A DNA stretch of 64,000 nucleotides from Deltaproteobacteria bacterium (GTDB lineage: Bacteria > Myxococcota_A > UBA9160 > JAFDDA01), in contig JAFDDA010000064.1 in the NCBI GenBank assembly GCA_019311105.1, forward strand, positions 7,593-71,592, written 5' to 3'. Shown piece after piece: positions 2 through 20,210 of this stretch; within the stretch, counting starts at the first letter, position 1; the number at the start of each line of letters is the position of its first letter. The notes below the pieces were generated by a model. That model was not told where the DNA came from. It made no database searches and saw nothing but the letters and a program-made list of their open reading frames with translations. Both the position numbers and the translations under genes were made by a program.

Positions 2-778
2 ATGGAAGCCGTGGTTCTCAGCGCAGGGCAGGGCCGACGCCTGCTGCCCCTGACGAAGTCCCTGCCCAAGTGCCTGCTGCAGGTGGCCCCAGGGGGGGGC
101 ACGGTGCTGGATGTCCAGCTCGACACGCTTTCCCGCTGCGGAATCGAGAAGGTGACCGTGATGGTGGGGTTCGGCGCCGAACAGGTCGAGCAGCATCTCG
201 CGGAGCACAAGCCCGAGGGCCTCGACGTCGAGCTCGTGCTCAACCCGCTCCACCCTCACTCCGACAACCTCGTCTCCGCCTGGCTTGCGACCTTTCGGGT
301 CGAGGGTGATTTCGTCCTGCTGAATGGCGACACGCTCTTCGAGGCCGAGGTCTTGCAGAGGATGATCGCCGCCGAGGGCGCCAAGGTCGGCGCGGCGGTG
401 GATTGCAAGGATGCCTACGACCTCGACGACATGTGCGTCTGGGTCGAAGACGGCAACCTCGTGGGCATCGGCAAGGGCCGCCGCGAAACCCAACCCGACG
501 GCGAAGCGATCGGGATCTACGTATTCCGGGGTCGCGGTGTGTCGGCCGCGCGCGACGTCTTCGCGCGGGTGATCGCCGAGCCCGAAGGCCTCCACTCCTG
601 GTATCCGCCGGCTCTCGAAACGCTCGCACGCGTCGAGCCCATCACGCCGGTGTCGATCGAGGGCCTGTGGTGGACCGAGATCGACTTCCCCGAGGATCTC
701 GAGAAGGCGCGAGTCGAGGTCGGCAGCCACTTCGCGCAGGCCGATCCCTGGACGGCTCCGTCGTCCCAGTCCGACTGA
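2..778 (+). CDS. Nucleotidyl(cytidylyl)transferase, LicC / inositol-phosphate cytidylyltransferase-like
   Basis: ATG at 2, 258-aa ORF. The N-terminal VLSAGQGRRLLPLT...PKCLL is the glycine-rich NTP-transferase loop. LLNGDTLF and EIDFPEDL blocks are typical of small sugar/alcohol-phosphate cytidylyltransferases. Confidence 0.8.
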   Translation: MEAVVLSAGQGRRLLPLTKSLPKCLLQVAPGGGTVLDVQLDTLSRCGIEKVTVMVGFGAEQVEQHLAEHKPEGLDVELVLNPLHPHSDNLVSAWLATFRVEGDFVLLNGDTLFEAEVLQRMIAAEGAKVGAAVDCKDAYDLDDMCVWVEDGNLVGIGKGRRETQPDGEAIGIYVFRGRGVSAARDVFARVIAEPEGLHSWYPPALETLARVEPITPVSIEGLWWTEIDFPEDLEKARVEVGSHFAQADPWTAPSSQSD

Positions 779-793
779 CCCGGACTCTCGGCC

Positions 794-1600
794 TTGTTGG
801 ATTCCCCTTCGAAGACCCTGACCGCGCTCGTGCTCGCCGGCGAGCGAGCCGAGGGCGACCCGCTGGCTCGCGATGCGAAGGTGCCCCACAAATCCCTGCT
901 CGAGGTGCGCGGCGTCCCGATGCTCGTTCGGGTGGTCGGATGTCTCGCTGCCGTGCCGGGTGTCGACCGGGTGCTCGTGAGTTCCGGGTCTGCCGACCTG
1001 CTCGATGCACACCCGGAGCTGTCGCGCCTGCGCGCGGCCGGCACCCTCGAACACCGCGAGAGTGCCGGTTCGCCGGCCTCGAGCGTCGAACTCGTACTCA
1101 CCCGCGAGAACTCGCCCAGGCCCATGCTCGTCACCACGTCGGACCATCCGCTGCTCACGCCCGACATGGTCGAACACTTCTGTTCCGAGGCCGAGCGCAG
1201 TGGCGCCGAGGTCGCCGCCGCGGTCGTCAGCGACGCGGTCTTCCGCGCACGCTTCCCCGACGCGCGCCGCACCTTCATCCCGCTGCGGGGCGAGGGGGTC
1301 ACCGGCGCGAATCTCTTCTGGTTCCGTTCCGGCCAGGGCGCGGCGGCCGCCCGTTTCTGGAAACAGACCGAGACGTTTCGGAAGAAGCCCTGGCGACTCG
1401 CCGGCCTGCTCGGCCCGGGGACCTGGGGACTCTTCCTGCTGCGTCGGATCGACCTCGAGGGGGCTGCGCGCCGCATCTCGAAGGCCGTCGGCATGAGCGT
1501 CGCTGCGATCCGGCTGCCCTACCCCGAGGCCGGGCTCGACGTCGACAAGCCCGCCGATCTCATCCTCGCCGAACGTGTCCTCTGCGAGTTGGACGCCTAG
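794..1600 (+). CDS. MobA-like nucleotidyltransferase family protein
   Basis: 268-aa ORF with a non-ATG (TTG) start, 15 nt after the upstream stop. The ALVLAGERA...HKSLLEVRGVPML N-terminus resembles MobA/NTP_transf_3-type enzymes. Codon bias is coding-like. Confidence 0.55.
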   Translation: MLDSPSKTLTALVLAGERAEGDPLARDAKVPHKSLLEVRGVPMLVRVVGCLAAVPGVDRVLVSSGSADLLDAHPELSRLRAAGTLEHRESAGSPASSVELVLTRENSPRPMLVTTSDHPLLTPDMVEHFCSEAERSGAEVAAAVVSDAVFRARFPDARRTFIPLRGEGVTGANLFWFRSGQGAAAARFWKQTETFRKKPWRLAGLLGPGTWGLFLLRRIDLEGAARRISKAVGMSVAAIRLPYPEAGLDVDKPADLILAERVLCELDA

Positions 1601-2559
1601 AGCCGATGCTCGGGCCCCGACTCGAACACGAGGCGCTCCCGATCGAGGACGCGAACCGCGCAGTGGACGCGGAAGCCCGTGCCGTCGTCTTCGAATCGGT
1701 AGAGGTGGTAGCGGGCGCGTCGCTCCGGGTCGTGCCCGAAGGCGGAAGAGGACGGAACGCCCACCACGGGGATCGGTCGCTCGGGCCCGTCGACCTGCTC
1801 GAAGCTCGTGCGGTGGGTGTGCCCGTGCAGCACCAGCTCGGCGCCGTGGCGCGCAAGGGTTTCGCGCAGGGCGCCGGCATCCTCGAGCCGGCGGCGCCCG
1901 CTCTGGCCTGCCGGCACGGGTGGGTGATGGATGAGCACGACTCGACAGGCCGCCGTGTCGCGGGTTTCGGCGAGCAGGGTTCCGAGCCGATCGAGCTGGC
2001 CGGCGCCGAGTCGCCCGACGGCGAGGCCGGGGGCGGTCGGCACCGCGGAGCACAGGCCGATCAGAGCCAGGGGGCCGACGCGGCGCAGGTATGGGAACAC
2101 GAGCCCGTCCTCGCCCTCCGGGGTCGACGACGCCTGTTTCGGCGAGAAGTAGGGAGCCCACTGCGCGAAGCGATCGGCCCCGACCGGCGCGGCGTAGGCG
2201 TCGTGGTTGCCGGGGACGATCGAGACGTGCTCCGGCCCGCCGAGCCGTTCGAGCCACGGCACGGCCTCGGCGATCTCTTCCGCGAGCCCGACGTTCGTGA
2301 GGTCGCCCGTCACGGCCACATGGTCGGGCGCCGTCCCGTCGAGGTCTTGGAGCAGGGCTTCGAGGATCTCGCCGCGATGTTCGTGTCGTCGCTTCCGACG
2401 CCACGAAAGCCAACCGAGCACGCGCTTGTTGGCGAGGTCGCTGAAGCGTCGGACACGGATCGGTGTGACGTGGAGATCCGAGAGGTGTGCGAGCGTGAAA
2501 CTGATGGGTCCGCGCTCCGCTTCGCCGTGGGGTCGGTCGGGCCGGAACGGCCGGGCCAC
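1597..2559 (-). CDS. Metallophosphoesterase (calcineurin-like)
   Basis: 320 aa with the ordered motifs LSDLHV, GDLTN, GNHD, HHPP and GHTH. Confidence 0.85.
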   Translation of the reverse strand: MARPFRPDRPHGEAERGPISFTLAHLSDLHVTPIRVRRFSDLANKRVLGWLSWRRKRRHEHRGEILEALLQDLDGTAPDHVAVTGDLTNVGLAEEIAEAVPWLERLGGPEHVSIVPGNHDAYAAPVGADRFAQWAPYFSPKQASSTPEGEDGLVFPYLRRVGPLALIGLCSAVPTAPGLAVGRLGAGQLDRLGTLLAETRDTAACRVVLIHHPPVPAGQSGRRRLEDAGALRETLARHGAELVLHGHTHRTSFEQVDGPERPIPVVGVPSSSAFGHDPERRARYHLYRFEDDGTGFRVHCAVRVLDRERLVFESGPEHRL

Positions 2560-2636: not shown

Positions 2637-3788
2637 GTGACCTCTTTGCCCGACTCCGCACGAACGACGGCGTGGCTCCTGCCCGCCGAGACGCCGCCTC
2701 CGGAACTCTTCGGGCTCTCGGGTGAAGAACGCCTGCGCCGCGTCCTGGCGAAGGCGGGTGTCGCCTGCATCGCGGTCGGGGACCCGCCGGAGCCGAAGCC
2801 GTCGGGCCCCACGTTGCTGCTGCGCAGCGACTGGCTCTTCGACGAGAGGCTCGTCGGTGCCTTGCTCGAATCCGAAGACACGCTGCTCCAGTCCCGTGAC
2901 GGCCAGGCCGTTGCGGCCAAGGTGTCGGGGGCTCTCGTCGACGAGGCCCGCACCGTGGTTGCCGGGCGTCATCCCGCCGAAGGTTTGCCGGCTTCGCTCC
3001 CTCGAGTCGGGCCCGATGATCTGGTTCCCGCTTACACCCACGCGCTGCGCAAGCGCGAGCCCGCGCTGCTCGTGGCAGCGGGCGCTGTCACTCCGGCCGA
3101 ACTCGAACAGCGACTCTTCGATGCGTCGTACAAGGGCATCACGGACTTCATCACCAAGTACGTCTGGCCGAAACCGGCGCTGCCCGTGGTGCGGGCGTGC
3201 GCGCGGCTCGGGGTCTCGGCCAACGCCATCACGGGAGTGAACTGGCTCTTGGTCGGGCTGGCGCTCGGACTCTTCGCTGTGGGACAGTTCGCTGCGGGTC
3301 TCGCCGCGGCGTGGCTCATGACCTTCCTCGACACCGTCGACGGCAAACTCGCACGGGTGACGCTGTCTTCGAGCCGCATTGGGCATGTGCTCGACCACGG
3401 CCTCGACATCGTCCACCCGCCGTTCTGGTACGCGGCCTGGGGCCTGGCACTGCCGGCCGCACCCTGGCTCGACGCGGCGATGGCGGCGGCGGTCGGGGGC
3501 TACGTCGTCCATCGGGGGGTCGAAGGCCTCTTCATGCTCTGCTTCGGCATCGAGATCCACTCCTGGCGGGCGCTCGACGCGCGCTTCCGGCTCATCACGA
3601 CGCGGCGCAACCCGAACCTGGTGCTGCTCTCGGCGGGCACTGCGGCGGGACGCCCGGATGTGGGCTTCGCGTTGGTGGCGTTGTGGACGGTGGCCTCCAT
3701 TGCGTTCCACCTCGTGCGGGTGGTGCAGGCGGGCTTCGTCCGCGGCGGGTACGAGCCCGGCGAAGCCACCGAGCGAGGCGCCCGATGA
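2637..3788 (+). CDS. CDP-alcohol phosphatidyltransferase with ~190-aa N-terminal extension
   Basis: 383 aa. Signature DTVDGKLARVT...GHVLDHGLDIVHP matches D-x2-D-G-x2-A-R...G-x3-D-x3-D, inside hydrophobic helices. The N-terminal soluble domain is not recognisable. Confidence 0.8.
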   Translation: MTSLPDSARTTAWLLPAETPPPELFGLSGEERLRRVLAKAGVACIAVGDPPEPKPSGPTLLLRSDWLFDERLVGALLESEDTLLQSRDGQAVAAKVSGALVDEARTVVAGRHPAEGLPASLPRVGPDDLVPAYTHALRKREPALLVAAGAVTPAELEQRLFDASYKGITDFITKYVWPKPALPVVRACARLGVSANAITGVNWLLVGLALGLFAVGQFAAGLAAAWLMTFLDTVDGKLARVTLSSSRIGHVLDHGLDIVHPPFWYAAWGLALPAAPWLDAAMAAAVGGYVVHRGVEGLFMLCFGIEIHSWRALDARFRLITTRRNPNLVLLSAGTAAGRPDVGFALVALWTVASIAFHLVRVVQAGFVRGGYEPGEATERGAR

Positions 3789-4870
3789 AGTCGGACGCGC
3801 GGCGAGCCATGCGGTGGTGGATCGGTCTGGTCGTCCTGCTGGGGCTGTGGGTGGCCCCCGCAAACGTTTCCGCGTCCGGTGCGTCTCGGCCGGGCGACCC
3901 CGCTGCACGGCTGCTCGGTGCGGAGCATGCGTCCGACGTATGGGATCTGACCGTAGCCCTCGACGACGGGCACTGGGTCATCGCCCAGGTCACGATCAGC
4001 AACGTCGGCCCGGGCGATCGCACGGGCGCGATCGTCGGCCACGTCCTCGCTCCGGACGGCACGAGCCACGAGTTCCACAAGGTTCGGACCCAGGGGGGCT
4101 GGACGCTGTCGCCCGACCGGCGGCGAATCGACCTCGATTCGATCATCTTCGACCAGCGTGGCGCGCCCAAGGACCCGGCGCGTTTCTACGTCGGGAAGAA
4201 GCGCGTGCATCTCGACCTCTTCGTGGATCTCTCCGGCGACCGCGTCGCCTCCGCCGGGCTCGCGGGGGGCGTTTATGGACTCGACCTCCTGGCGTTGGCG
4301 GCCCCGGTTCGTGGGACACTTCAACTCGGGGAGGACGCGCCCACGCGCTCGGTCACGGGCCGCGCGATCTTGACCCACCGTTGGATGGATTCCCTCGAGT
4401 CGCGCTGGGTGGAGCGCCGCGTGGAGTTCTTCGGTTTGGAGAACGGAACGGGCGTCTACCTGAGTGACGTGACGGCGCCCGACGGCGAAGCGCACCGCTG
4501 GCTCGTGGTCGGGCGCGATGGACGCATCGTGGAGAGCACCGAGCAGGTCGAGCTCGACCCGGTTGGCGCCGGCGGCCTCGCGATCCGCGCGGCCTCGGCG
4601 ACGGGCCGGGTCGGCGCTTCGCGCGAGCTGCTGCGCGACGAACCGCTCGCGCGCGCACCCTGGCTCGCGCGGCTCTTCGTCGGCCGCCTGACGCGCCCGC
4701 GCTTCATCTGGAGTTCGGCGCCCTTCGACTTCACCGTCGGCCGCCCCGAAGCGGGTGGCTCGAGTCTGGCCGGGCGCGGCCTGTTGGGCGTCTCGCGTTT
4801 CGATGCCACCGGGTTCGATGCAACCGATCAGGCGCCGGCCCGGCCGAGCGACCTCTGGAGTGTTCGATGA
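3785..4870 (+). CDS. Exported hypothetical protein
   Basis: ATG at 3785 overlaps the upstream TGA (ATGA), in frame within ORF 3197..4870. The signal-like N-terminus is MKSDARRAMRWWIGLVVLLGLWVAPANVSA. I recognise no motif. Confidence 0.6.
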   Translation: MKSDARRAMRWWIGLVVLLGLWVAPANVSASGASRPGDPAARLLGAEHASDVWDLTVALDDGHWVIAQVTISNVGPGDRTGAIVGHVLAPDGTSHEFHKVRTQGGWTLSPDRRRIDLDSIIFDQRGAPKDPARFYVGKKRVHLDLFVDLSGDRVASAGLAGGVYGLDLLALAAPVRGTLQLGEDAPTRSVTGRAILTHRWMDSLESRWVERRVEFFGLENGTGVYLSDVTAPDGEAHRWLVVGRDGRIVESTEQVELDPVGAGGLAIRAASATGRVGASRELLRDEPLARAPWLARLFVGRLTRPRFIWSSAPFDFTVGRPEAGGSSLAGRGLLGVSRFDATGFDATDQAPARPSDLWSVR

Positions 4871-5829
4871 TTCGAATCGGTGTGCTGAACAACCTGCGCT
4901 CCGGGCGCGGGATGTCCCGGGTCCAACAGGTGCTCGGGGTGCTCGAGTCGGAGCCCGAAGTCCTCCACGTGGAGACCGGCAACGCATCGCTCGTGCCCGA
5001 GGCCCTGGCGGACTTCGAGCGCGAGGGCGTGGAACTCCTGGTCGTGAACGGGGGCGACGGCACGCTGCAGCGGGTGCTCACCGCACTCCTGGCCCACGAG
5101 CATGGCTCGGAGTGGCTTCCTCAGGTCGCACCGATCCGAGGCGGGCGCACCAACATGAGCGCCATCGATCTGGGCTCGCACCGCGACCCCGCGCAGGGGT
5201 TGAAGAACCTGATCGAGAAGGCACGCGCGGGCCGGTTGAAGGAGTGTGAGGTCGAGCGGCCGGTCCTGCGGGTGGATCTGGGGCTCGACGATGGCGTGCA
5301 GTATGGCGTCTTCTTCGGTGCAGGCGTTCTTCACCGCGCCGTGCAACTGACACCGCGCTACATGCCCGAGGGCCGCGCCCAGGGCGTCTTCGGCGCTGGC
5401 GCCGTGACGGCGGCCTTGTTGGCTCGGACCGCACTCGGTGGCTTCGGTGGGATCCTTGCCGCCGACAAGATGCAGTTCGCCATCGATGGCGAGCCCGCGG
5501 AGTCGCGCGAGCTTCGTGTCGCCATGGCGACCAGCGCGGAGCGTCTTTTCCTCGGCCTGCGTCCCTTCTGGGGCACCGGGCCCGGGGCCGTGCGCCTGAC
5601 GCTCGTCGCGTCGGACGCGCGTAGCTTACCGCGGGCAGCGTGGGGCATCCTGCGCGGACGGCCACCGAGTTGGGCCACGCCCGATGCCGGCTACCTCAGT
5701 TGCAAGTGCGAGACCGTCGCGCTGCGCGTCGATTGCGGCGTGACCCTCGACGGAGAACTCTGGGAGGCGTGCCCCGGCCGTTCGGTGGAGATCACCGCCG
5801 ACCGCCGCGTCCAGTTCATCCGTGCCTGA
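4867..5829 (+). CDS. Diacylglycerol/sphingosine-kinase-family lipid kinase (DAGK_cat, YegS/LCB5-like)
   Basis: 320 aa with an ATGA overlap to the upstream gene. VVNGGDGTLQRV is the GGDGT catalytic-loop motif. Confidence 0.8.
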   Translation: MIRIGVLNNLRSGRGMSRVQQVLGVLESEPEVLHVETGNASLVPEALADFEREGVELLVVNGGDGTLQRVLTALLAHEHGSEWLPQVAPIRGGRTNMSAIDLGSHRDPAQGLKNLIEKARAGRLKECEVERPVLRVDLGLDDGVQYGVFFGAGVLHRAVQLTPRYMPEGRAQGVFGAGAVTAALLARTALGGFGGILAADKMQFAIDGEPAESRELRVAMATSAERLFLGLRPFWGTGPGAVRLTLVASDARSLPRAAWGILRGRPPSWATPDAGYLSCKCETVALRVDCGVTLDGELWEACPGRSVEITADRRVQFIRA

Positions 5830-6796
5830 GTCGGGTGCGCGCCTGCAACTCCGAGAGCTCGTTGCAAACGAGCTGGCCGCACCCCTCTCTGAACCCGTCA
5901 CCGCATTCGCCGCAGAGCTCCGCAGACGCCACGGCGACGCGGTCATGGCAGTTCTCTTCTACGGCTCGTGTCTTCGCAAGCAGACCACGGAGGGAGTCCT
6001 CGACTTCTACGTGATCGTGGACGACTACCGGTCGGGCTACGAATCCCGCGCGCTGGCCCTCGCCAATGCCGTGCTCCCGCCCAACGTCTTCTTCTGCGAG
6101 TGGCTCCGCGGCGACGAGCCGCTGCGGGCGAAGTACGCCGTTCTCTCGGCCCGCGACTTCCGCCGTGCCGCGTCCCCAAGGAGCATCGACTGCCGCGTCT
6201 GGGCGCGTTTCAGCCAACCCGCGGCGTTGGCGTTCGTGCGAGACGAAGACGCCCGGCGCGAAGTGGCGGAAGTCGCGACGAGCTCGTGTCTCACTTTCAC
6301 CGGGCGCGCCTGGGCTGCACGCTCAGGGGAAGAGGCCAGCCGGCCCTTCACCGCTGAGGCCCTCGTCCGCGAGGGCTTCCGCGAGACCTACCGCGCCGAG
6401 TTGCGGACCGAACGCGACGACACGATCCAGCAGATCTTCGAAGCCCAGCCCAATCGCTATCGAGAAATGACGACGCTTGCGCTTCGCACGCTGGCCGACC
6501 GGGGTGAGTTCACGCTGAAGGAGACGCCAGAGGGGTTCGAGGCACACGCGCCGAAAGGCCGTCGGCGACGCGCGCGCCTGGCCTGGCAGGCGCGCCGGCC
6601 GCTGGCGAAGGCTCTCGCGATCGCGAGCCTGTTGAAGACCGCCTTCACCTTCGGTGACTGGGTCCCCTACGTCGTCTGGAAGGTGGAGCGCCACACCGCG
6701 GTGAAGATCGAGCTGACCGAACGCCAGCGGCGTCACCCGCTCGTCTTCGCCTGGCCCGTGGTGTTCCGCTTGTTGCGCGAGGGGATCTATCGCTGA
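5822..6796 (+). CDS. Tam41/Mmp37-like protein (putative phosphatidate cytidylyltransferase type)
   Basis: 324 aa. Blocks LFYGSCLRKQ...VLDFYVIVDD, NVFF...AKYAVLS and RVWARFSQP parallel, from memory, the conserved blocks of mitochondrial Tam41 (YGSGVF...DFI..VDD, KYGVIS, GRLQKP). Confidence 0.55.
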   Translation: MPESGARLQLRELVANELAAPLSEPVTAFAAELRRRHGDAVMAVLFYGSCLRKQTTEGVLDFYVIVDDYRSGYESRALALANAVLPPNVFFCEWLRGDEPLRAKYAVLSARDFRRAASPRSIDCRVWARFSQPAALAFVRDEDARREVAEVATSSCLTFTGRAWAARSGEEASRPFTAEALVREGFRETYRAELRTERDDTIQQIFEAQPNRYREMTTLALRTLADRGEFTLKETPEGFEAHAPKGRRRRARLAWQARRPLAKALAIASLLKTAFTFGDWVPYVVWKVERHTAVKIELTERQRRHPLVFAWPVVFRLLREGIYR

Positions 6797-7860
6797 GCGT
6801 TGCGGGCCGAGCGGGCGAAGAGCTGCCCCAGCGTGGCCAGGACGCCCGACGTCACGGTGTCGCGATAGGGCGAGTCTTCGGGCAGCTCCTCGATCAGCGC
6901 GCGATGCACCGCCGCGACGTTGTGGTAGGGGACGCCCGGCAACATGTGGTGCAGGCCGTGGAATCGCAGGCCCACCGGCGCGGCCAGGGCGGTGAGGATT
7001 GGCGCGCCGGGTATGTTCACGGAATCGATCAGCTGCTCGTTCCAATCGAGTTGCCCGCCGAGGTTCTCGTAGCGATGGGACACGAGGGTTCGTGCGTGAT
7101 TGAGGAAGAGGATCCCCGCAGTCACCGCCCAAGCGACGAAGGCCCAGCGCACGTCGAGGAGCCCGAACGCGATGGCAGCGGTGCAGGCCCAGACCCAGAG
7201 GGCGCCGCCGGCCTCCTCCAGCTTCCAGCGGAGAGCGTCGCGCCGAACGGGCAGCTCGCGCACGTAGCGCGGGTTGATCGCGAGGGTGGAGAGGTGCCCG
7301 ACGACGAAGGGGCGCAGGGCGGGGATGAGCCGCGAGAGCGGGCCGAGCACTCCCCAGCGAACCGCCAGTGCCGGCGGGAAAAGGGGCATCAGGGCGAAGG
7401 AGCCGGCGATCCGCAGGGGGCTCCAGGTCGCCACGGGCGCATACTCCGGGTCGAGGTCGGTGCCGTAGCGGGTCACGTCGTGGTGTTGCCGGTGAGCCCC
7501 GACGTACATCAGGCTGGGCGCCATGAGGGGAATTCCCACCAATAAGTTCCAGGTCGTCTCGAAACCCCGGACATCATTCGGCTTCAGGTGGGTGATCTCA
7601 TGGATGAAGAGCACGGCGCGATAGAGCGCGAGGATTGCCACGACCAGGGCGACACCGGAAAGCGCCGAACCCGCGGGGAGGCTCCCGGCCAAGTAGAAGG
7701 CCGACCAGCCGACCATGGCGGAGACGCCGAGATCCGCCCAGAAAATGGCGGGCTGGGGCTTCTGAGCCGCAGCGAAACGGCGCCGAAGCGCAGCCAGACT
7801 TAGCTCCAGGTTGCCCGAGGTCGGCCTCGCGGCATCCAGAGCAAGGGTTTCCTCCACCAC
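6787..7860 (-). CDS. Fatty-acid desaturase/hydroxylase family membrane protein
   Basis: 357 aa with three histidine boxes (HEITHL, HRQHHD, HGLHHM) and hydrophobic helices. Confidence 0.8.
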   Translation of the reverse strand: MVEETLALDAARPTSGNLELSLAALRRRFAAAQKPQPAIFWADLGVSAMVGWSAFYLAGSLPAGSALSGVALVVAILALYRAVLFIHEITHLKPNDVRGFETTWNLLVGIPLMAPSLMYVGAHRQHHDVTRYGTDLDPEYAPVATWSPLRIAGSFALMPLFPPALAVRWGVLGPLSRLIPALRPFVVGHLSTLAINPRYVRELPVRRDALRWKLEEAGGALWVWACTAAIAFGLLDVRWAFVAWAVTAGILFLNHARTLVSHRYENLGGQLDWNEQLIDSVNIPGAPILTALAAPVGLRFHGLHHMLPGVPYHNVAAVHRALIEELPEDSPYRDTVTSGVLATLGQLFARSARNAQR

Positions 7861-8012: not shown

Positions 8013-9068
8013 GTGGAAAGCGGCCACACGCTGCGCCGGGACGGTAGCGTCCGTCAAATGCGAGATATCCTGAGTGACTGCTTCGAGCGGCGCCCGGGTA
8101 TCTATTGGGCGGACATGGCCGTGAGTGCGTCCGTGGCCTACCCGGCCGCGCTCTACTTCCTGCTCGCGCCGGGCTTCGGCCCCCTCCACGTCGCCGCCTA
8201 TCTGGTGGGCGGTCTCGCCCTGTTTCGCCTGGGGAGCTTCATCCACGAAATCCAGCACATGCGCTCGGACGAGATGCGGCTTTTCAAGGGCGTCTGGAAC
8301 GTCCTTTGTGGCGTGCCCATGGTGATGACCTCGAACACCTACGACAACCACGCCGACCATCACAGCGTCCGGACCTATGGGACTGAATCGGACGGGGAAT
8401 ACGTGCCTTTGGCCTCCGGGACCGGGCGAATCCTCATGTATTGCCTGCAGGTTCCGCTGTTGCCCCTGCTCGCGATCGTGCGCTTCGCGGTGCTCGGTCC
8501 GCTCTCGCTCCTCTACCCGCCGCTGCGGCGCTGGGTGCTGGCGCATGCCTCCTCCTACGGCATCAACCCGAACTACGTCTTGCTCCCGGTGCGGCAGACC
8601 TCACCTGCTCTCTACGCGTTGCGCGATCTCGCCTGCGGGGCCTACATGCTCGGTATCGTGGCCCTGTTGGTCACGGGCGTGCTGCCGCTCGAGTTCGTCG
8701 CCCGCCTCTATGCCTTCCTGCTCTTCACGATTGGCCTGAACTACACGCGGAACCTGGCGGCGCACCGCTATCGCGAGTACAGCGGGCCGGTTGGGATCAT
8801 CGAGCAGCTCGAGGACTCGATCACCATCACGGGGGGGCTCTCGACCGAGCTGCTCTTCCCGATCGGGCTTCGATACCACGCGCTACACCACGCGCTTGCG
8901 ACGATCCCGTACCACCAGATGGCCCGGGCTCACCGTCGCCTTCTCGAGCAGCTCGAACCGGATTCGCCCTACCGGAGCACGGTGCATCCTTCGTTCGTGG
9001 GCGTCCTGCGCAACCTCGTCGCGGATGCGCGCGGGCAGAGGGGCGCCGCCGGGGCCCGCGCCGCTTGA
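8013..9068 (+). CDS. Fatty-acid desaturase/hydroxylase family membrane protein (paralog of 6787..7860)
   Basis: 351 aa with histidine boxes HEIQHM, HADHH and HALHHA. It lies divergent from its paralog. The start is uncertain: GTG at 8013, or a later ATG. Confidence 0.8.
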   Translation: MESGHTLRRDGSVRQMRDILSDCFERRPGIYWADMAVSASVAYPAALYFLLAPGFGPLHVAAYLVGGLALFRLGSFIHEIQHMRSDEMRLFKGVWNVLCGVPMVMTSNTYDNHADHHSVRTYGTESDGEYVPLASGTGRILMYCLQVPLLPLLAIVRFAVLGPLSLLYPPLRRWVLAHASSYGINPNYVLLPVRQTSPALYALRDLACGAYMLGIVALLVTGVLPLEFVARLYAFLLFTIGLNYTRNLAAHRYREYSGPVGIIEQLEDSITITGGLSTELLFPIGLRYHALHHALATIPYHQMARAHRRLLEQLEPDSPYRSTVHPSFVGVLRNLVADARGQRGAAGARAA

Positions 9069-9090: not shown

Positions 9091-10854
9091 ATGAGGATCC
9101 TGCTGGAGTTTGCGCGTGCGCGTCCGCTCGCGAGCCTGGCCTTGCTGCTGTGCTTGTTCGTCGCGGGGGTCGTCGAGGGACTCGGCTATTCGTCCGTTCT
9201 TCCGCTCCTTCGGGTCGCGATCGACGGTTCCGTCGCCGAGTCGCCGTCGGGCATGGAGGCTCGGGTGCTCGACGCCTTCCGAAGTGTCGGTCTCGTCCCC
9301 ACCCTCGGGGTCCTCGCCTCCGTGATCGCCGCTGCTTTCATCGTGAAGGCGGCGATCGTTCTGTTCGTTCGGCGGCAGGTGGGGTACACGATCGCGCGCG
9401 TGGTGACGGATCTGCGTCTGCGACTGCTCCGCGCGCTACTTCGAGCAGACTGGCCCTACTACGTGCGTCAGCCGGTCGGTGGCCTCGCCAACGCCTTTGT
9501 CACCGAGGCGAACCGAGCTGGCTCTGCCTACATGCACGGCACTTGGGTTGCCTACCGCGTCCTTCAGATGGCGATCTATGCCGGGATTGCCTTCGCCATT
9601 TCGTGGCGGGTGACCCTCGTGGCGCTCGTCATCGCATCGTTCCTGGTCCTGAGCCTGGCAGGCCTCGTGCGCACGGGACGACGTGCGGGCCTTCGGCAGA
9701 CGAAGCTGTTCCGCGGGCTGCTGAGCCGATTCACGGATCTACTGCAGAGCGTGAAGCCCTTGAAGGCCATGGGACGCGCCGAGGACATGACGCCGTTCCT
9801 CGAGCGCGACACCTTGCGCGTGCAGCGCATCCGCCAGAAGCAGGTCTTCGTGAAGGAGGCGATGCCGGCGCTGCAAGAGCCGATCATGGTCGGCGTCCTC
9901 TTGCTCGGCCTTTATGTAGCGAGTGAGATCATGGGGCTGGAGGTGTTGAGCTTCGGCGTCATGGGCCTGTTGCTCTACAAAGCCTACAGCGCCATGAACC
10001 AGGCTCAGCGTCGCTATCAGAAGGTCGCGGTGGACGAGAGTGCGTATTGGGCGATCCGTCGCACCATCGAAGAGGCCGAGGCGCAGGCGGAGCGGTCGGG
10101 TTCGGGTGTGATGGTGCCGTTGCGCGATGCCATCGAGCTCGAGGCCGTGAGCCTGCAACACGACGCCGTCGACGCTGGGCGAGAGGCCCATGTCGTCCTG
10201 GATCGTGCGGATGTCTCGATTCCGGCGGGTGAGGTCACCGCGTTGACGGGGCCCTCGGGTTCCGGGAAGACGACGATCGTCGACCTCGTGGCGGGGCTGC
10301 TCCAACCGACGGAGGGTTGCGTCCGCGTGGACGGGGTGCCCCTCGGTGAGCTCGACCTCGCCTGCTGGCGCCGATCGATCGGCTACGTCCCGCAGGAGAC
10401 GTTCCTGCTGAACGACACCATCGCGACGAATGTGACCCTCGGCGCGCCGGATCTTTCCGAGGCCGAGGTGGTGCGCGCGCTCCGTGCAGCACACGCCTGG
10501 GAGTTCGTGAAGGATCTCCCCAAAGGCATCGAAACCCCGGTCGGCGAGCGCGGCTCGGCGCTCTCGGGCGGCCAACGCCAGCGCATCGCCATCGCGCGAG
10601 CCCTGGTGCATCGACCTTCGCTGCTGATCCTCGACGAGGCCACCGCCTCGCTCGACCCGGCGAGCGAGGCCGCGGTGCTCGAGGCGGTGCGGGAGTTGCG
10701 AGGCCGGACCACCGTGCTCGCGGTGTCCCATCAGCCCGCGCTGCTCGGGGTTGCGAGCCGGGTCTATCATGTGGCGGACGGCGTCGCGACGCGGAAGCCG
10801 GCCGAGGAAGAGGCCGCTGCCCCTCGCGCTGCCGCCGCGGGAGCCCAGGCATGA
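9091..10854 (+). CDS. ABC exporter, fused permease/ATPase (MsbA-like)
   Basis: ATG at 9091, in frame in ORF 8791..10854. It has N-terminal TM helices. The C-terminal NBD carries Walker A GPSGSGKTT, the signature LSGGQRQR and Walker B LLILDEAT. Confidence 0.85.
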   Translation: MRILLEFARARPLASLALLLCLFVAGVVEGLGYSSVLPLLRVAIDGSVAESPSGMEARVLDAFRSVGLVPTLGVLASVIAAAFIVKAAIVLFVRRQVGYTIARVVTDLRLRLLRALLRADWPYYVRQPVGGLANAFVTEANRAGSAYMHGTWVAYRVLQMAIYAGIAFAISWRVTLVALVIASFLVLSLAGLVRTGRRAGLRQTKLFRGLLSRFTDLLQSVKPLKAMGRAEDMTPFLERDTLRVQRIRQKQVFVKEAMPALQEPIMVGVLLLGLYVASEIMGLEVLSFGVMGLLLYKAYSAMNQAQRRYQKVAVDESAYWAIRRTIEEAEAQAERSGSGVMVPLRDAIELEAVSLQHDAVDAGREAHVVLDRADVSIPAGEVTALTGPSGSGKTTIVDLVAGLLQPTEGCVRVDGVPLGELDLACWRRSIGYVPQETFLLNDTIATNVTLGAPDLSEAEVVRALRAAHAWEFVKDLPKGIETPVGERGSALSGGQRQRIAIARALVHRPSLLILDEATASLDPASEAAVLEAVRELRGRTTVLAVSHQPALLGVASRVYHVADGVATRKPAEEEAAAPRAAAAGAQA

Positions 10855-11811
10855 GCGAGACGCTTCGCCCCCGAACCTGGCTGGATGAGCCGCGCGCCGG
10901 CGCGCCCTGCACCGTGATTGCCGAGGTCGCCCAGAGCCACGAGGGCAGCCTCGGGATGGCCCACGCCTTCATCGACGCCGCCGCCGCTGCGGGCGCCGAC
11001 GCCATCAAGTTCCAGACCCACATCGCGAGCGCCGAGAGCACACCGGCCGAGCCGTGGCGCAAATCCTTCAGCTCGCAGGACACGACGCGTCTTGGCTACT
11101 GGCGCCGCATGGAGTTCGCCGAAGAGGGCTGGCACGAGCTGCGCAAGCACGCCCAGGAGCGAGACCTCCTCTTCTTGAGTTCGCCCTTCTCGCTTGCAGC
11201 GGTCGAGCTGCTCGAGCGCGTCGGCGTGGCGGGCTGGAAGGTCGCTTCCGGCGAGATCAACAACCACGCGCTGCTCGATCGGATGTGCGACGGCGGCATC
11301 CCGGTCATGCTCTCGACGGGCATGAGCCAGGAGGACGAGATCGCGACAGCGGCGGCTCGTGTCCAGGCGCGCGGCGTGCCGCTCGCGGTGATGCAGTGCA
11401 CCTCGATGTACCCGTGCCCGCCCGAGTGGGTCGGCGTGGATCTCGTCCCGCACTTCCGTGAGCGCTTTGGCTGTGCCGTCGGGCTCTCGGACCACTCGGC
11501 GACGATCTATCCCGGCATCGCCGCAGCGATGCTCGGGGCCGAGGTGCTGGAAGTCCATCTGACCCTCGGTCGCGAGATGTTCGGGCCCGATGTCATCGCT
11601 TCGCTCACCTCCACCGAGCTGCGCCAGCTGGTGGACGGGGTCCGCTTCATCGAACGCATGCGGGCCCACCCCGGCCGCAAGGCGGACCTGCCCGAATCCG
11701 TGACGTCGCTGCGGCAGATCTTCATGAAGAGCGTCGTCGCCACGCACGCGCTCGAGGAGGGCACCACGCTCGCCGCCGAGGATCTGTGCTCCAAGAAGCC
11801 CGGGAACCATG
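10851..11811 (+). pseudogene. neuB: N-acetylneuraminate (nonulosonate) synthase NeuB-like, 3' end disrupted
   Basis: VIAEVAQSHEGSL...ADAIKFQTH and GLSDHS are NeuB/PseI-type blocks. The SAF-domain start (KSVVATHALEEGTTLAAEDLCSKKPG) breaks off where neuC starts. There is no in-frame stop until 12821. Confidence 0.7.
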
Positions 11812-12966
11812 TCGAGGAAGGTCTGCGTCGTCATCACCGCTCGCCCGAGCTACTCGCGGGTGCGGTCGCTCCTGCGAGCGATCAAGAACCACCCGGAGCT
11901 CGAACTTCAGCTCGTCGTTGCGGCCTCGGCGCTGCTGGATCGCTACGGAAGCGTCCACACCGTGATCGAGCGGGAGGGCTTCCACATCGATCGCCGGGTC
12001 TACAACATCTTCGAAGGCGAGAACCTGCTCACCTCGGCGAAGTCGACCGGCATGGGGATCGTCGAGCTGGCCAGTGCCTTCTCCGAGCTCGCGCCCGACA
12101 TGGTCGTCACCATCGCAGATCGCTTCGAGACCATCGCGACGGCGATCGCCGCGAGCTACCAGAACATTCCCCTCGTGCACATCCAGGGTGGCGAGGTCTC
12201 GGGCTCCATCGACGAGAAGGTGCGCCACGCGATCACCAAGCTCGCGGATCTCCACTTCGTCTCTTCCGCCCGTGCCGCGGAGCGCGTGATCCGCATGGGC
12301 GAACGCAGCGACCGCGTGTACGACACGGGCTGCCCTTCCATCGACGTGGTCGTCGACGCCTTGGCGAAGCCGCCGCTCTCCACGAGCGAGCTATTCGAAC
12401 GCTACGGCGGGGTTGGCGACACGCTCAATCTCGACGACGCCTACGTCGTGGTGATCCAGCACCCGGTCACCACGCAGTACGAGGCCAGCCGACGTCAGGT
12501 GCTCGAGACGCTTCACGCGATCGCCGAGAGCGGCGTCCCGACGCTCTGGTTCTGGCCGAACGTCGACGCGGGCTCCGACGGCACGTCCGGAGGGATCCGC
12601 GCCTATCGCGAGGAGCACTCGCTGCCCCACGTCCACTTCTTCAAGAACCTGCCGCCCGACGACTTCCTGCGCCTCATCGATCGCAGCCGCGGTATCGTGG
12701 GCAACTCGAGCGTGGCCATCCGCGAGTGCGCCTTCATGGGCGTCCCCGCCGTGAACATCGGCAACCGACAGCGGGGGCGCGACCGCGGGCGCAACGTGAT
12801 CGACGTGGAACACGACCGTAAGCAGATCCGCGACGCCATCGATCGCTGTGTCGCCGCCGGGCGTTTTGAATCCGACCTGCTCTACGGCGACGGAGAGTCG
12901 GGCGTGCGAATCGCCGACCACCTGGTGACCGTACCGTTGAGCGTCGAAAAGACCCTTACCTACTAA
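11809..12966 (+). CDS. neuC: UDP-N-acetylglucosamine 2-epimerase (hydrolysing), NeuC-like
   Basis: 385 aa. VCVVITARPSY, IADRFE and HIQGGEVSGSIDEKVRHAITKLADLHF are hallmark epimerase_2 blocks. Confidence 0.85.
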   Translation: MSRKVCVVITARPSYSRVRSLLRAIKNHPELELQLVVAASALLDRYGSVHTVIEREGFHIDRRVYNIFEGENLLTSAKSTGMGIVELASAFSELAPDMVVTIADRFETIATAIAASYQNIPLVHIQGGEVSGSIDEKVRHAITKLADLHFVSSARAAERVIRMGERSDRVYDTGCPSIDVVVDALAKPPLSTSELFERYGGVGDTLNLDDAYVVVIQHPVTTQYEASRRQVLETLHAIAESGVPTLWFWPNVDAGSDGTSGGIRAYREEHSLPHVHFFKNLPPDDFLRLIDRSRGIVGNSSVAIRECAFMGVPAVNIGNRQRGRDRGRNVIDVEHDRKQIRDAIDRCVAAGRFESDLLYGDGESGVRIADHLVTVPLSVEKTLTY

Positions 12967-12983
12967 GAGGGGGAGGAGAAAGA

Positions 12984-13781
12984 GTGCCGACCTTTACTGA
13001 AGCTCAGCTCGACGCTCACGAGGCGATGCTGGTTGAAAACGTCTTTCAGACGAGCAAGTGGCCCCACTTCGACCTGTTGTTTCGCGACATCCGACGTCAT
13101 GCGGGCGAGCTTTCCCCCGGCGCGACGGTCGTGTCGCTGGAGCGTGGTCTGCTCTATGGGGGCGTCAGTCTAGTCGCGCCGTTCTTCCACGCTCAGAACT
13201 TCATCTCCGTGGATTGCTCACCGGAGAGTGCGGACGAGCGGGGCGGGTACAACGCGGGGCAGATCGACGACCCGCGCACGCTTCGTGTGCCGACGACCCG
13301 CCGCGCTCCGATCGAAGCCACAGGTCTCGAAGCCGATCAGGCCGATCTCGTGCTCGTCCCGAACCTGGTGCATCATGTCGCCAATCAGCGGGCACTTTTC
13401 GGTGAGATGGCTCGGATCGCCCGGCCCGGCGGTTCGGTCTACGTCTTCGAGGCGTTGCTCCGCGAGCTGCACCAGATCCCCGACGACTACCTCCGCTACA
13501 CCCCGTTCGGGATCCAGAAAGTTCTTGTTGAAGCCGGCCTCGAGTGCGACGACTACGAAGTCGAAGGCGGCCCGTTCTCGGCGATCGGCTACTGCTGGAT
13601 CCAGGCCCTGCAATACTTCCCCGAGCCGCGTCGCTCGGAGATGGAACGTTGGTTCTTCGAGGAGCACTGGCCCGATCTCCAGAAGTGGGAGGAGGCGCAT
13701 CGTGAGAACCTCGTCCGCAAGCATACGGCGTTCCCCGTGAGCTTCTCCGTCGTGGCGCGCAAGCCGGAGGCGAATTCTTGA
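12984..13781 (+). CDS. SAM-dependent methyltransferase-like protein
   Basis: 265 aa, GTG start preceded by GGGAGGAG. LVLVPNLVHHV...LFGEMARIARPGGSVYVFE resembles the post-I/II region of class I methyltransferases. Confidence 0.65.
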   Translation: MPTFTEAQLDAHEAMLVENVFQTSKWPHFDLLFRDIRRHAGELSPGATVVSLERGLLYGGVSLVAPFFHAQNFISVDCSPESADERGGYNAGQIDDPRTLRVPTTRRAPIEATGLEADQADLVLVPNLVHHVANQRALFGEMARIARPGGSVYVFEALLRELHQIPDDYLRYTPFGIQKVLVEAGLECDDYEVEGGPFSAIGYCWIQALQYFPEPRRSEMERWFFEEHWPDLQKWEEAHRENLVRKHTAFPVSFSVVARKPEANS

Positions 13782-14460
13782 GTTTTCAGGGCCGCAGCGT
13801 CCTCGCCATCGTGCCTGCGCGTGGCGGGAGCCGCGGGATCCCACGCAAGAATCTCTGCAAGATCGGCGGGCTTTCGCTCGTTGCCCGGGCTGGCCGCATG
13901 GCGGGCGCGCTCGGCTTCGTCGATCTCGCCATCTTGAGCACCGATGACGAGGAGATCGCCGATGAAGGCCGCCGCGCCGGGCTGGAGGTGCCGTTCATCC
14001 GGCCCCCCGATCTCTCCGGCGATCGCGCGACGGCCATCGCCACATGGCAGCACGCATGGCTCGAGGCCGAGGCCTTCCGGGGCGAGCGCTTCGACCTCTC
14101 GGTCTGGCTCGAGCCGACGAGCCCGCTGCGACGGCCCGAGGACGTGACCCGCACCGTCGAGGCGTTGTGCGCCGCCGGCAGCCGAGCCGCCATGACCGTG
14201 AGCCCGATCCCCGCCCACATGGCACCCGAGCGCGCACTCTGTGTCGAGGCGGATGGCCGCATCCGCGCCCACGGCAGGCGATCCCGCCGCGTCATCATCG
14301 AAACGGGCTGGCCTACGCGGCCACGCGTGCTGGTGTTCTCGAGGCAGGTGACGCGCTTTGGGACGATTGCTTCGCGGTGGTCGTCGATCGCCCGACCGCC
14401 AACATCGACGAGCAGATCGACCTCGAGTGGGCCGCCTTCCTGCTCGCGCGAGAGAACTGA
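13778..14460 (+). pseudogene. neuA: CMP-N-acylneuraminate synthetase (acylneuraminate cytidylyltransferase) NeuA-like, frameshifted
   Basis: The N-terminus AIVPARGGSRGIPRKNL...EPTSPLR is in the frame of ORF 13778. The C-terminus RQAIPPRHHRNGLAYAATR...ANIDEQIDLEWAAFLL is in the frame of ORF 14044..14460. The switch falls near 14255-14275. Confidence 0.8.
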
Positions 14461-14463
14461 GCC

Positions 14464-18956: not shown

Positions 18957-20210
18957 TTATTCGCTCAGGCGAGTGCCCCAGAATGCCACCAACCGCTGCG
19001 CGTGCCAGGCCAGCGAGAACCCCTGCCAGGCGACGATCCCGTAGAAGGTGGCGAGGGCCACGACGCTCGTCCCGGCCACGGCATCGATGGCGAGGGCCAC
19101 CGTGAAGAACGCCAGGTTCACGTTGCGGCGCGAGATGAACGTGCGCATGCGGACGTCGAGAGGGGTAGCACCGTGGATCGATCGGCCGGTCTTCTGCCGG
19201 AAGATCGCGGTCACGATCCGATCGATCACATAGAGCGCGAACATCGCGAGTGCCGCTTGGTAGGGCAGCGACTCGGTCGAACCGCTGCCAAGCGCATAGC
19301 CCCAGGCCATGTACCAGAAGGGCGGGTGGACGATGTCGAGGCCGTGGTCGGCCACGTCGCCCACGCGTGACGACGTGTAGGTCAGGCGCGCGAGCTTTCC
19401 GTCCACGGAATCCATGACGCTCATCAGATAGGCGCAAGCGAGGGCCGGGACCCACGCGCCTTCCATGAAGAGTGGGATGCAACCGAAGGTCGCGACCCAG
19501 TTGACCCCCGTGATCCAGTTGGGATGGACGCGAAGGTGGGAGAGCGGCCGCACCAGGGCCCAGACGAGCGGCGGGTAGACGTAGCGCGTCATGAAGTCGG
19601 TCGAGCCCTTGTAGTTCGACCAGAAGAGGAACCGCTCGACGCGGGCGATGGTCTCCGGGCCATCGATTCGGAAGAGGTAGGGGCCCACCTCCCGGCGCAG
19701 CTTCTGGACGTACCCGTTGAATTCGGCCTCGAGGACGGGCGTCAGGTCGCCTCGCGCGAGGCCATTCTCCGCGATGGTACGGAGGTCATCCGCCTCGGGA
19801 GAGGGGTCGGCGGCCTCGGCGCCGATGCGGAAGAGCGCTGCGCCGGCATGGACCTCGGGCTCCACGAAGGCCTGGTCTTTCGGCGCCGAAGCGAGATGGG
19901 TGAGCAGCCGTGGGTCGATCACCGAATCTGCAGAGACGGCGAGGAGCGGTGCGCCTTCCGCTTCGCGACGGACCCGCGCGATGTGCCCCCCAGCCGTGCC
20001 CGGAGTGCGCGTGAAGTGCAGGGGCAGGGCGCGAGCGAGGTCGGGCCGGAGGTCGGGCTCGGGCGCGTCGGGGGCGAGCGCCACCTCCACACGGCCAACG
20101 GCAAGCCCGGATTCGATCACGCCACGCAGCACGCGTTCGAGCAGGCTGAGGCCGAACACCCGGCGTTGCCCCGGCTGGCGGGCATCGATCCAGATCACCG
20201 TGTCGTTCAA
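18957..20210 (-). CDS. CDP-alcohol phosphatidyltransferase with N-terminal extension (paralog of 2637..3788)
   Basis: TTG at 20210, 10 nt after GGAG, in frame in ORF 18957..20606. The signature is DSVDGKLARLT...GDVADHGLDIVHP. The FGLS..ER.LR N-terminal domain is shared with the paralog. Confidence 0.8.
   Translation of the reverse strand: MNDTVIWIDARQPGQRRVFGLSLLERVLRGVIESGLAVGRVEVALAPDAPEPDLRPDLARALPLHFTRTPGTAGGHIARVRREAEGAPLLAVSADSVIDPRLLTHLASAPKDQAFVEPEVHAGAALFRIGAEAADPSPEADDLRTIAENGLARGDLTPVLEAEFNGYVQKLRREVGPYLFRIDGPETIARVERFLFWSNYKGSTDFMTRYVYPPLVWALVRPLSHLRVHPNWITGVNWVATFGCIPLFMEGAWVPALACAYLMSVMDSVDGKLARLTYTSSRVGDVADHGLDIVHPPFWYMAWGYALGSGSTESLPYQAALAMFALYVIDRIVTAIFRQKTGRSIHGATPLDVRMRTFISRRNVNLAFFTVALAIDAVAGTSVVALATFYGIVAWQGFSLAWHAQRLVAFWGTRLSE

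Follow-up and report, generated by a model that had tools for sequence, protein, structure and literature searches.

Anionic ceramide head groups in Caulobacter can replace lipopolysaccharide and set polymyxin sensitivity. CpgB (CC_1160) of this organism is a ceramide kinase; in vitro, diacylglycerol (DAG) and ceramide are phosphorylated about equally well by the purified enzyme, and deletion of cpgB leaves phosphatidate levels unchanged (PMC10331486). After deletion of cpgC (CC_1161), ceramide phosphate is kept and only ceramide phosphoglycerate (CPG) and CPG2 are lost (PMC9393093). Formation of CPG2 is served by cpgA, the phosphoesterase gene CC_1158, CC_1153, which encodes a CofC-like nucleotidyltransferase, and cpgD (CC_1152) (PMC11324152, PMC12275187). 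CpgD makes CDP-glycerate, and CpgA, which is thought to use this soluble compound, acts when the second phosphoglycerate is added (PMC12275187). In 2024 it was reported that CC_1161 homologues carry the Tam41 domain IPR015222, and a nucleoside diphosphate-activated ceramide was proposed (PMC11324152, S1 Text); for this pathway, found in 2022, the mechanism of CpgC was still listed as unidentified in 2025 (PMC12275187). The present work concerns a stretch of 64,000 nucleotides (hereafter the window; positions 7,593 to 71,592 of contig JAFDDA010000064.1, assembly GCA_019311105.1) from a Deltaproteobacteria bacterium, in which the open reading frame (ORF) at 5822-6796, called ORF7 here, follows a lipid kinase gene at 4867-5829. 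Judged from their sequences, these two genes are very probably the cpgC and cpgB orthologues of a ceramide (di)phosphoglycerate-type pathway. The locus adds a distant new member to the known CpgB/CpgC phosphosphingolipid system, whose link to the Tam41 domain has already been published.

ORF7 is located on the plus strand, begins with GTG and encodes 324 amino acids. It is the last of four plus-strand genes (2637-3788, 3785-4870, 4867-5829 and 5822-6796), each of which overlaps the next. The junctions are formed by ATGA at 3785-3788, a second ATGA at 4867-4870 and, where the stop of the kinase gene meets the start of ORF7, by the 8-nt overlap GTGCCTGA at 5822-5829; 2637-6796 is therefore a single overlapping string, and it is translationally coupled. 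A first-pass annotation of this DNA had placed the start of ORF7 over the end of a lipid kinase with a GGDGT motif and had described one overlapping string that begins with a CDP-alcohol transferase gene at 2637 and ends at 6796. The overlap, the string and its coordinates were all recovered, although the gene at 3785-4870, with a product of 361 amino acids, had gone unmentioned and the string holds four genes, not three. The 3' end of ORF7 overlaps the convergent desaturase/hydroxylase gene (6787-7860, minus strand) by 10 nt (6787-6796), which leaves no room for a terminator between the two. The G+C content of the window is about 70%.

For comparison with the published genes, Caulobacter-type loci were reached by a 21-mer scan of metagenome contigs using a published cc_1161 deletion primer. 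Of the four primers published for the cc_1161 deletion, three were matched in locus L091, two exactly and one with a single mismatch, and the published sizes of the amplicon (843 bp), the deletion (813 bp) and the gene (882 nt) were reproduced. Because primers, amplicon, deletion and gene length agree, L091 was taken to represent CC_1161. The related locus L090, with 81% DNA identity, has the gene order as published, namely spt, cpgC, cpgB, cpgA, CC_1158, an unnamed ORF, LptF/G, a gene in the bCerS position, CC_1153 and cpgD. Three other loci (L088, L089 and L093) were rejected, as their primer matches were due to chance and the gene was absent.

ORF7 and CC_1161 (CpgC of L091) could be aligned with 38% identity over 312 columns (E 6e-49), covering residues 9-320 of 324 and 3-288 of 293, respectively, and each was the sole match of the other in either direction. 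The kinase at 4867-5829, the only copy found in the source genome, showed 32-33% identity to CpgB over about 305 amino acids (E 6e-23). The product of 2637-3788 showed 45% identity to CpgA (CC_1159) over 346 amino acids (E 1e-97), and that of 1597-2559 showed 46% identity to CC_1158 of L091 over 291 amino acids (E 3e-70). Using L090, 40% identity was found between 2-778 and CpgD (240 amino acids, E 7e-52) and 32% between 794-1600 and the protein in the CC_1153 position (258 amino acids, E 8e-32). In either direction each protein found a single partner, the one exception being CpgA, which also matched the product of 18957-20210. The six cpg-type genes, a gene similar to Spt and a fused LptFG gene lie together on one contig.

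For the function of ORF7 itself, direct searches returned nothing. No Pfam match was found at E <= 10 and no NCBIfam match, CTP_transf_1 (PF01148, the family of CdsA) being likewise unmatched, and searches of the PDB with ORF7 (phmmer) and with a close-family profile, A1, gave nothing relevant. An AlphaFold model based on an alignment of 36 sequences reached a pLDDT of 92.4 and a pTM of 0.91. When this model was compared by Foldseek with 350,542 PDB chains, the top four matches were the chains of Schizosaccharomyces pombe Tam41 in 6IG4 and 6IG2 (E 2.4e-7 to 9e-7, TM 0.55-0.57 on the target, 282-288 columns); the next fold class, the aminoglycoside nucleotidyltransferases, scored a TM of about 0.36. 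A more diverse profile, A2, of 43 sequences headed by ORF7, matched 6IG2 with E 2e-4. One family member, P0160, which scores 307 bits against the ORF7 profile, reached 34.3 bits with the Pfam model PF09139 (Tam41_Mmp37; cut-off 24) and matched 6IG2 with E 3.7e-6 and the Firmicutes Tam41 7ECD with E 0.015, while two other members gave weak PF09139 scores (E 0.016 and 0.032).

The first-pass annotation had also recognised the block order of mitochondrial Tam41 in ORF7, and the HMMER alignments of P0160 and of A2 with 6IG2 bear this out. The conserved blocks of the family (YGS...D-F, KY.V, (W)ARF.QP and Y..E.R..E) are colinear with those of S. pombe Tam41 (YGSGVF...IDFIF, KYGV, GRFQKP and SYLGDIR...AE). 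Nine residues, G48, D61, K104, R129, Q132, P133, E193, R195 and E197, are invariant in members down to 29% identity. In Tam41, the catalytic body is made up of a nucleotidyltransferase domain and, after it, a winged-helix domain, which together form the CTP pocket, and a basic amphipathic C-terminal region binds the membrane (PMC7018664). The same two-domain layout was found in ORF7 by AlphaFold and Foldseek. Its residues 245-324 contain 19 K/R against 5 D/E (net charge +14), are helical in the model and include no window of transmembrane-grade hydrophobicity. By its predicted structure and its motif order, ORF7 is a protein of the Tam41-type nucleotidyltransferase fold.

The family of ORF7 comprises more than 3800 clusters at 90% identity and at least 1594 clusters at 50% identity (E <= 1e-3), and occurs in at least 595 species genomes of Myxococcota, Binatia, Nitrospirota, Desulfobacterota, Acidobacteriota and Proteobacteria. 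The closest relatives are labelled Myxococcota, Deltaproteobacteria or Binatia, and Dongia soli D78 (locus L067) is a carrier in culture. Annotation is uniformly lacking, the members being called 'hypothetical protein'; since the family is large and conserved, ORF7 is not a chance ORF.

Gene neighbourhoods were counted in the best 80 named loci of other species found with alignment A1, Caulobacter not being among them. In 76 of these 80 loci the ORF7 homologue has a CpgB-type kinase gene at most 300 bp away. A metallophosphoesterase gene is present in 60, a CC_1153-type gene in 54, a CpgA-type transferase gene in 47-48 and an Spt-like gene in 21; a desaturase homologue within 300 bp was found in 25. 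Both types of CDP-alcohol transferase, CpgA and that of 18957-20210, occur in 16 loci. Neighbourhoods of the homologues include a DAGK_cat kinase, NTP_transf_3, a gene similar to serine palmitoyltransferase (NF047600, 559 bits), a desaturase, LptF/G and an ABC exporter. Natural fusions are also known: P0227 (L095:4390-6378, 662 amino acids) joins DAGK_cat to a Tam41-like domain and is encoded directly after a CDP-alcohol transferase gene, and P0131 (594 amino acids) joins NTP_transf_3 to a Tam41-like domain. The coupling to a lipid kinase that had been proposed for this locus is thus seen in the 8-nt overlap, in the synteny and in a natural fusion.

Within the phylum of the window, 22 of 201 genomes carry the ORF7 family, nearly all of these belonging to the order of the window. 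Of the 20 genomes of this order with the family, 18 have an Spt-type gene (called at >= 340 bits), compared with 4 of the 12 lacking the family (Fisher p = 0.0015).

Taken as a whole, the explanation that we favour, with somewhat better than even confidence, is that 4867-5829 and ORF7 are CpgB and CpgC orthologues in an anionic phosphosphingolipid gene set, in which a Tam41-fold enzyme activates ceramide 1-phosphate. The kinase would first turn ceramide into ceramide 1-phosphate. ORF7, bound peripherally to the inner membrane through its basic C-terminal helices, would then activate ceramide 1-phosphate with a nucleotide, most likely CTP, to give CDP-ceramide and pyrophosphate, by analogy with Tam41, which makes CDP-diacylglycerol (CDP-DAG) from CTP and phosphatidate. 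In a third step a transferase would join the activated lipid to glycerate or phosphoglycerate to form ceramide phosphoglycerate, and the CpgD-like, CC_1153-like, CC_1158-like and CpgA-like proteins would finally add a second phosphoglycerate through CDP-glycerate. Fold, orthology, synteny and co-occurrence with Spt are results of the present analysis; the cytidylyl transfer to ceramide 1-phosphate and the identity of the condensing enzyme are inferred. That ORF7 is a CTP:ceramide-1-phosphate cytidylyltransferase yielding CDP-ceramide is, on the analogy with Tam41, an evenly balanced proposition. More tentatively still, CDP-ceramide may be the product of the CpgC family, which would then be, for sphingolipids, a widespread equivalent of Tam41 and CdsA; a CDP-alcohol phosphotransferase (candidate 18957-20210) may couple glycerate or phosphoglycerate to it, in the manner of PgsA with CDP-DAG, and the product may perhaps be decorated with nonulosonic acid and exported by the dedicated LptFG and ABC genes.

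Several observations weigh against this explanation. The profile search for the Mmp37/Tam41 family suggested in the first-pass annotation gave no match of ORF7 to PF09139 at E <= 10, and neither the whole source genome nor the CpgC gene of L090 matched this model. The link to Tam41 runs through profiles, a family member and a predicted structure, and because ORF7 lacks the match while P0160 passes the cut-off, ORF7 is to be regarded as a remote Tam41-fold relative and not as a member of the Pfam family. Identity between ORF7 and Tam41 is about 14%. The nucleotidyltransferase motif [DE]h[DE]h reads D-F-Y in ORF7, its second carboxylate being absent. The Spt-like gene scores under the NCBIfam equivalog cut-off, and tblastn and phmmer searches of the 90%-complete genome returned no ceramide synthase of the Caulobacter type (bCerS). 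In Caulobacter, the cpgA deletion still makes CPG, and genetics has yielded no separate condensing enzyme (PMC11324152, PMC12275187). No CDP-ceramide has been reported, the term being absent from the literature searched, and for the source organism a head group of the ceramide phosphoglycerate type is a prediction.

The strongest alternative, which we regard as unlikely, is that ORF7 is not a cytidylyltransferase and either transfers glycerate or phosphoglycerate onto ceramide 1-phosphate itself or uses another nucleotide, for example in an adenylylation. There are nucleotidyltransferase-fold enzymes, of the LicD/fukutin type, which transfer phospho-alcohols from CDP-alcohols. The lipidomics of Zik et al. 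led these authors to infer an addition of glycerate to ceramide phosphate by CpgC (PMC9393093), and no separate condensing enzyme has come out of the Caulobacter genetics (PMC11324152, PMC12275187); the similarity to Tam41 is remote, and at about 14% identity the choice of substrate and nucleotide is therefore not readable from homology. A phosphomonoester would have to be activated before it could be esterified with glycerate, however, and Olea-Ozuna et al. considered the direct reaction energetically unfavourable (PMC11324152). In addition, the cpgD deletion, in which CDP-glycerate is not made, still makes CPG (PMC12275187), so that CDP-glycerate is not the donor of the first step, and the blocks shared with Tam41 fall in both domains of the CTP pocket (PMC7018664).

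The first-pass annotation had itself read the locus as a DAG kinase and a Tam41-type CTP:phosphatidate cytidylyltransferase which supply the CDP-alcohol transferase of the neighbouring gene with CDP-DAG without the need for CdsA, naming ceramide in brackets as another possible substrate. The CDP-DAG route was not supported and is improbable. The genes are one-to-one orthologues of sphingolipid cpg genes, Spt-like and LptFG genes lie alongside, and the family tracks Spt-type genes. A CdsA gene is present elsewhere in the genome (C70:6980-7822, 197 bits). In Caulobacter, the cpgB deletion spares phosphatidate and the cpgC deletion hits only CPG and CPG2 (PMC10331486, PMC9393093), and the patchy occurrence of the family in the phylum is as expected for an accessory lipid. 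What speaks for CDP-DAG is that the only relatives to have been characterised, which have the fold and the motifs in common with ORF7, are CDP-DAG synthases; in view of the phosphorylation of DAG by CpgB in vitro (PMC10331486), a glycerolipid side activity is possible. The bracketed ceramide agrees well with the cpg orthology and the Spt context, while the final step of the earlier route, in which a CDP-alcohol transferase gives the CDP-lipid a new head group, is hypothetical. That ORF7 could have lost catalysis and serve as a scaffold of the nucleotidyltransferase fold, or be the kinase's lipid-binding partner, as the missing second carboxylate might suggest, is very improbable, since the active enzyme Tam41 has the same deviation (D-F-I), the invariant polar residues form a pattern typical of an active site and the Caulobacter deletion gives a specific biosynthetic block (PMC9393093).

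If the favoured explanation is right in its central step, the formation of CDP-ceramide, sphingolipids would have a liponucleotide branch point of their own, in parallel to that of CDP-DAG, and anionic ceramide head groups would be predicted in many uncultured lineages. If CDP-ceramide is not formed, the locus still annotates a large family whose members are now labelled 'hypothetical protein'. Beyond the InterPro hint, the present analysis adds a confident model with Tam41 as its top PDB match, a near-universal pairing with the kinase that includes a fusion, and a very wide distribution.

The genes around ORF7 are collected in the following table.

Features of the window around the cpgB/cpgC-type gene pair (window coordinates)
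Feature	Coordinates	Strand	Domains or other basis
CpgD-like CTP:phosphoglycerate cytidylyltransferase (CC_1152/CCNA_01210 homologue)	2..778	+	NTP_transferase/NTP_transf_3
CC_1153-like MobA/CofC-type nucleotidyltransferase	794..1600	+	NTP_transf_3, E 1e-15; weak CofC match
CC_1158-like metallophosphoesterase	1597..2559	-	Metallophos, E 2e-14
CpgA-like CDP-alcohol phosphotransferase with N-terminal soluble domain	2637..3788	+	CDP-OH_P_transf
Exported or membrane-anchored double beta-barrel protein of AttH/Fsa2/kievitone-hydratase type, 361 amino acids	3785..4870	+	AlphaFold and Foldseek
CpgB-like lipid (ceramide) kinase, 320 amino acids	4867..5829	+	DAGK_cat, E 3e-10; GGDGT in translation
CpgC-like Tam41-fold nucleotidyltransferase (ORF7)	5822..6796	+	Nucleotidyltransferase and winged-helix domains; basic C-terminal membrane-binding tail
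Fatty-acid desaturase/hydroxylase family protein	6787..7860	-	FA_desaturase, E 6e-22
Second desaturase/hydroxylase paralogue	8013..9068	+	FA_desaturase, E 2.5e-20
MsbA-type ABC exporter, candidate lipid flippase	9100..10854	+	ABC_membrane and ABC_tran
Second CDP-alcohol phosphotransferase, CpgA paralogue	18957..20210	-	CDP-OH_P_transf, E 6e-9

The product of 3785-4870 gave no Pfam or NCBIfam match, even at E <= 10. It has a hydrophobic N-terminal helix, and its AlphaFold model (pLDDT 87.8) is a double beta-barrel for which Foldseek returned the pericyclases Fsa2, Phm7 and CghA, AttH NE1406, kievitone hydratase and 25-phosphosteroid lyase (E 5e-12 to 1e-6, TM about 0.6), all of which bind hydrophobic ligands. 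A homologue lies directly upstream of the kinase gene in 35-36 of the 80 related loci, while the Caulobacter loci L090 and L091 contain no counterpart. The protein could be a lipid carrier or a modifying enzyme.

The transferase encoded by 18957-20210 shows 42% identity to that of 2637-3788 over the 242 amino acids of the transferase core and is a candidate for the enzyme that carries out the condensation. Between the cpg genes and this second transferase, and after the desaturase and MsbA-type ABC genes, lies a nonulosonic-acid run (10851-18943) with neuB, neuC, a methyltransferase gene, a neuA-like gene, two unannotated ORFs and a gene of the metallo-beta-lactamase fold. Decoration of the sphingolipid by nonulosonic acid is conceivable. 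The top NCBIfam models for gene 2-778 are those of sugar-1-phosphate and inositol-phosphate cytidylyltransferases. From such NCBIfam resemblance, an inositol-lipid route of the CDP-inositol/DIPPS type was considered for 2-778 and 2637-3788 and rejected, as CpgD and CpgA are much closer.

Upstream of the window, on the same contig, the gene of an Spt-like alpha-oxoamine synthase was found at a distance of 4.5 kb (C71:1710-3044, minus strand). Its top NCBIfam model is serine palmitoyltransferase (399 bits), and it shares 41% identity with the Spt of L090. Just upstream of the window lies a gene for an LptF-LptG fusion, a single protein of 746 amino acids (C71:5159-7399, minus strand), and a two-component system is located between it and the Spt-like gene. 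An ORF of 535 amino acids further upstream (C71:28-1635) has no Pfam or NCBIfam match and is not conserved near ORF7 homologues. At locus L002, a protein of 308 amino acids with a faint match to 2-oxoacid-dehydrogenase acyltransferases is encoded next to Spt and the ORF7 homologue. The source genome has a homologue of this protein (C189:24127-24954, plus strand, E 2e-43), which may be an alternative N-acyltransferase.

The gene of P0160 (412 amino acids; L096:7113-8351 and L097:6338-7576) has no kinase gene beside it. It follows an LptF/LptG pair and an ORF of 77 amino acids, and adjoins genes for a sulfotransferase, an Asp/Arg hydroxylase, an ELM1-like protein and a glycosyltransferase; the locus may represent a different lipid head-group system.

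In comparison with known enzymes, ORF7 shares the domain layout and the basic C-terminal region of Tam41/TAMM41 (PF09139; 6IG2, 6IG4) and of the Firmicutes Tam41 (7ECD), and the common motif order is YGS, D-F, KY.V, RF.(Q/K)P and Y..(D/E).R..E. It differs from Tam41 in that its family is almost universally paired with a lipid kinase and its context points to ceramide 1-phosphate, and not to phosphatidate, as the lipid substrate. With CdsA (PF01148) ORF7 shares the predicted reaction type, in which a nucleoside triphosphate and a lipid phosphomonoester give a liponucleotide, but CdsA is an integral membrane protein of unrelated fold. Compared with the cpg genes of Caulobacter, the window comes from a different phylum-level lineage, ORF7 is 31 residues longer, and the double beta-barrel gene is additional between cpgA and cpgB, as are a second CDP-alcohol transferase gene, two desaturase/hydroxylase genes and the nonulosonic-acid operon in the cluster. 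LptF and LptG are fused in the source genome, in which the Caulobacter-type bCerS was not detected; the fusion parallels the LptF2/LptG2 sphingolipid transport genes of Caulobacter. The companions common to both systems are CpgA, CpgD, CC_1153, CC_1158, Spt and the LptF/G paralogues, and the central pair stands in the same order, kinase then CpgC with overlapping genes, as CpgB (CC_1160/CCNA_01218) and CpgC (CC_1161/CCNA_01219) in Caulobacter.

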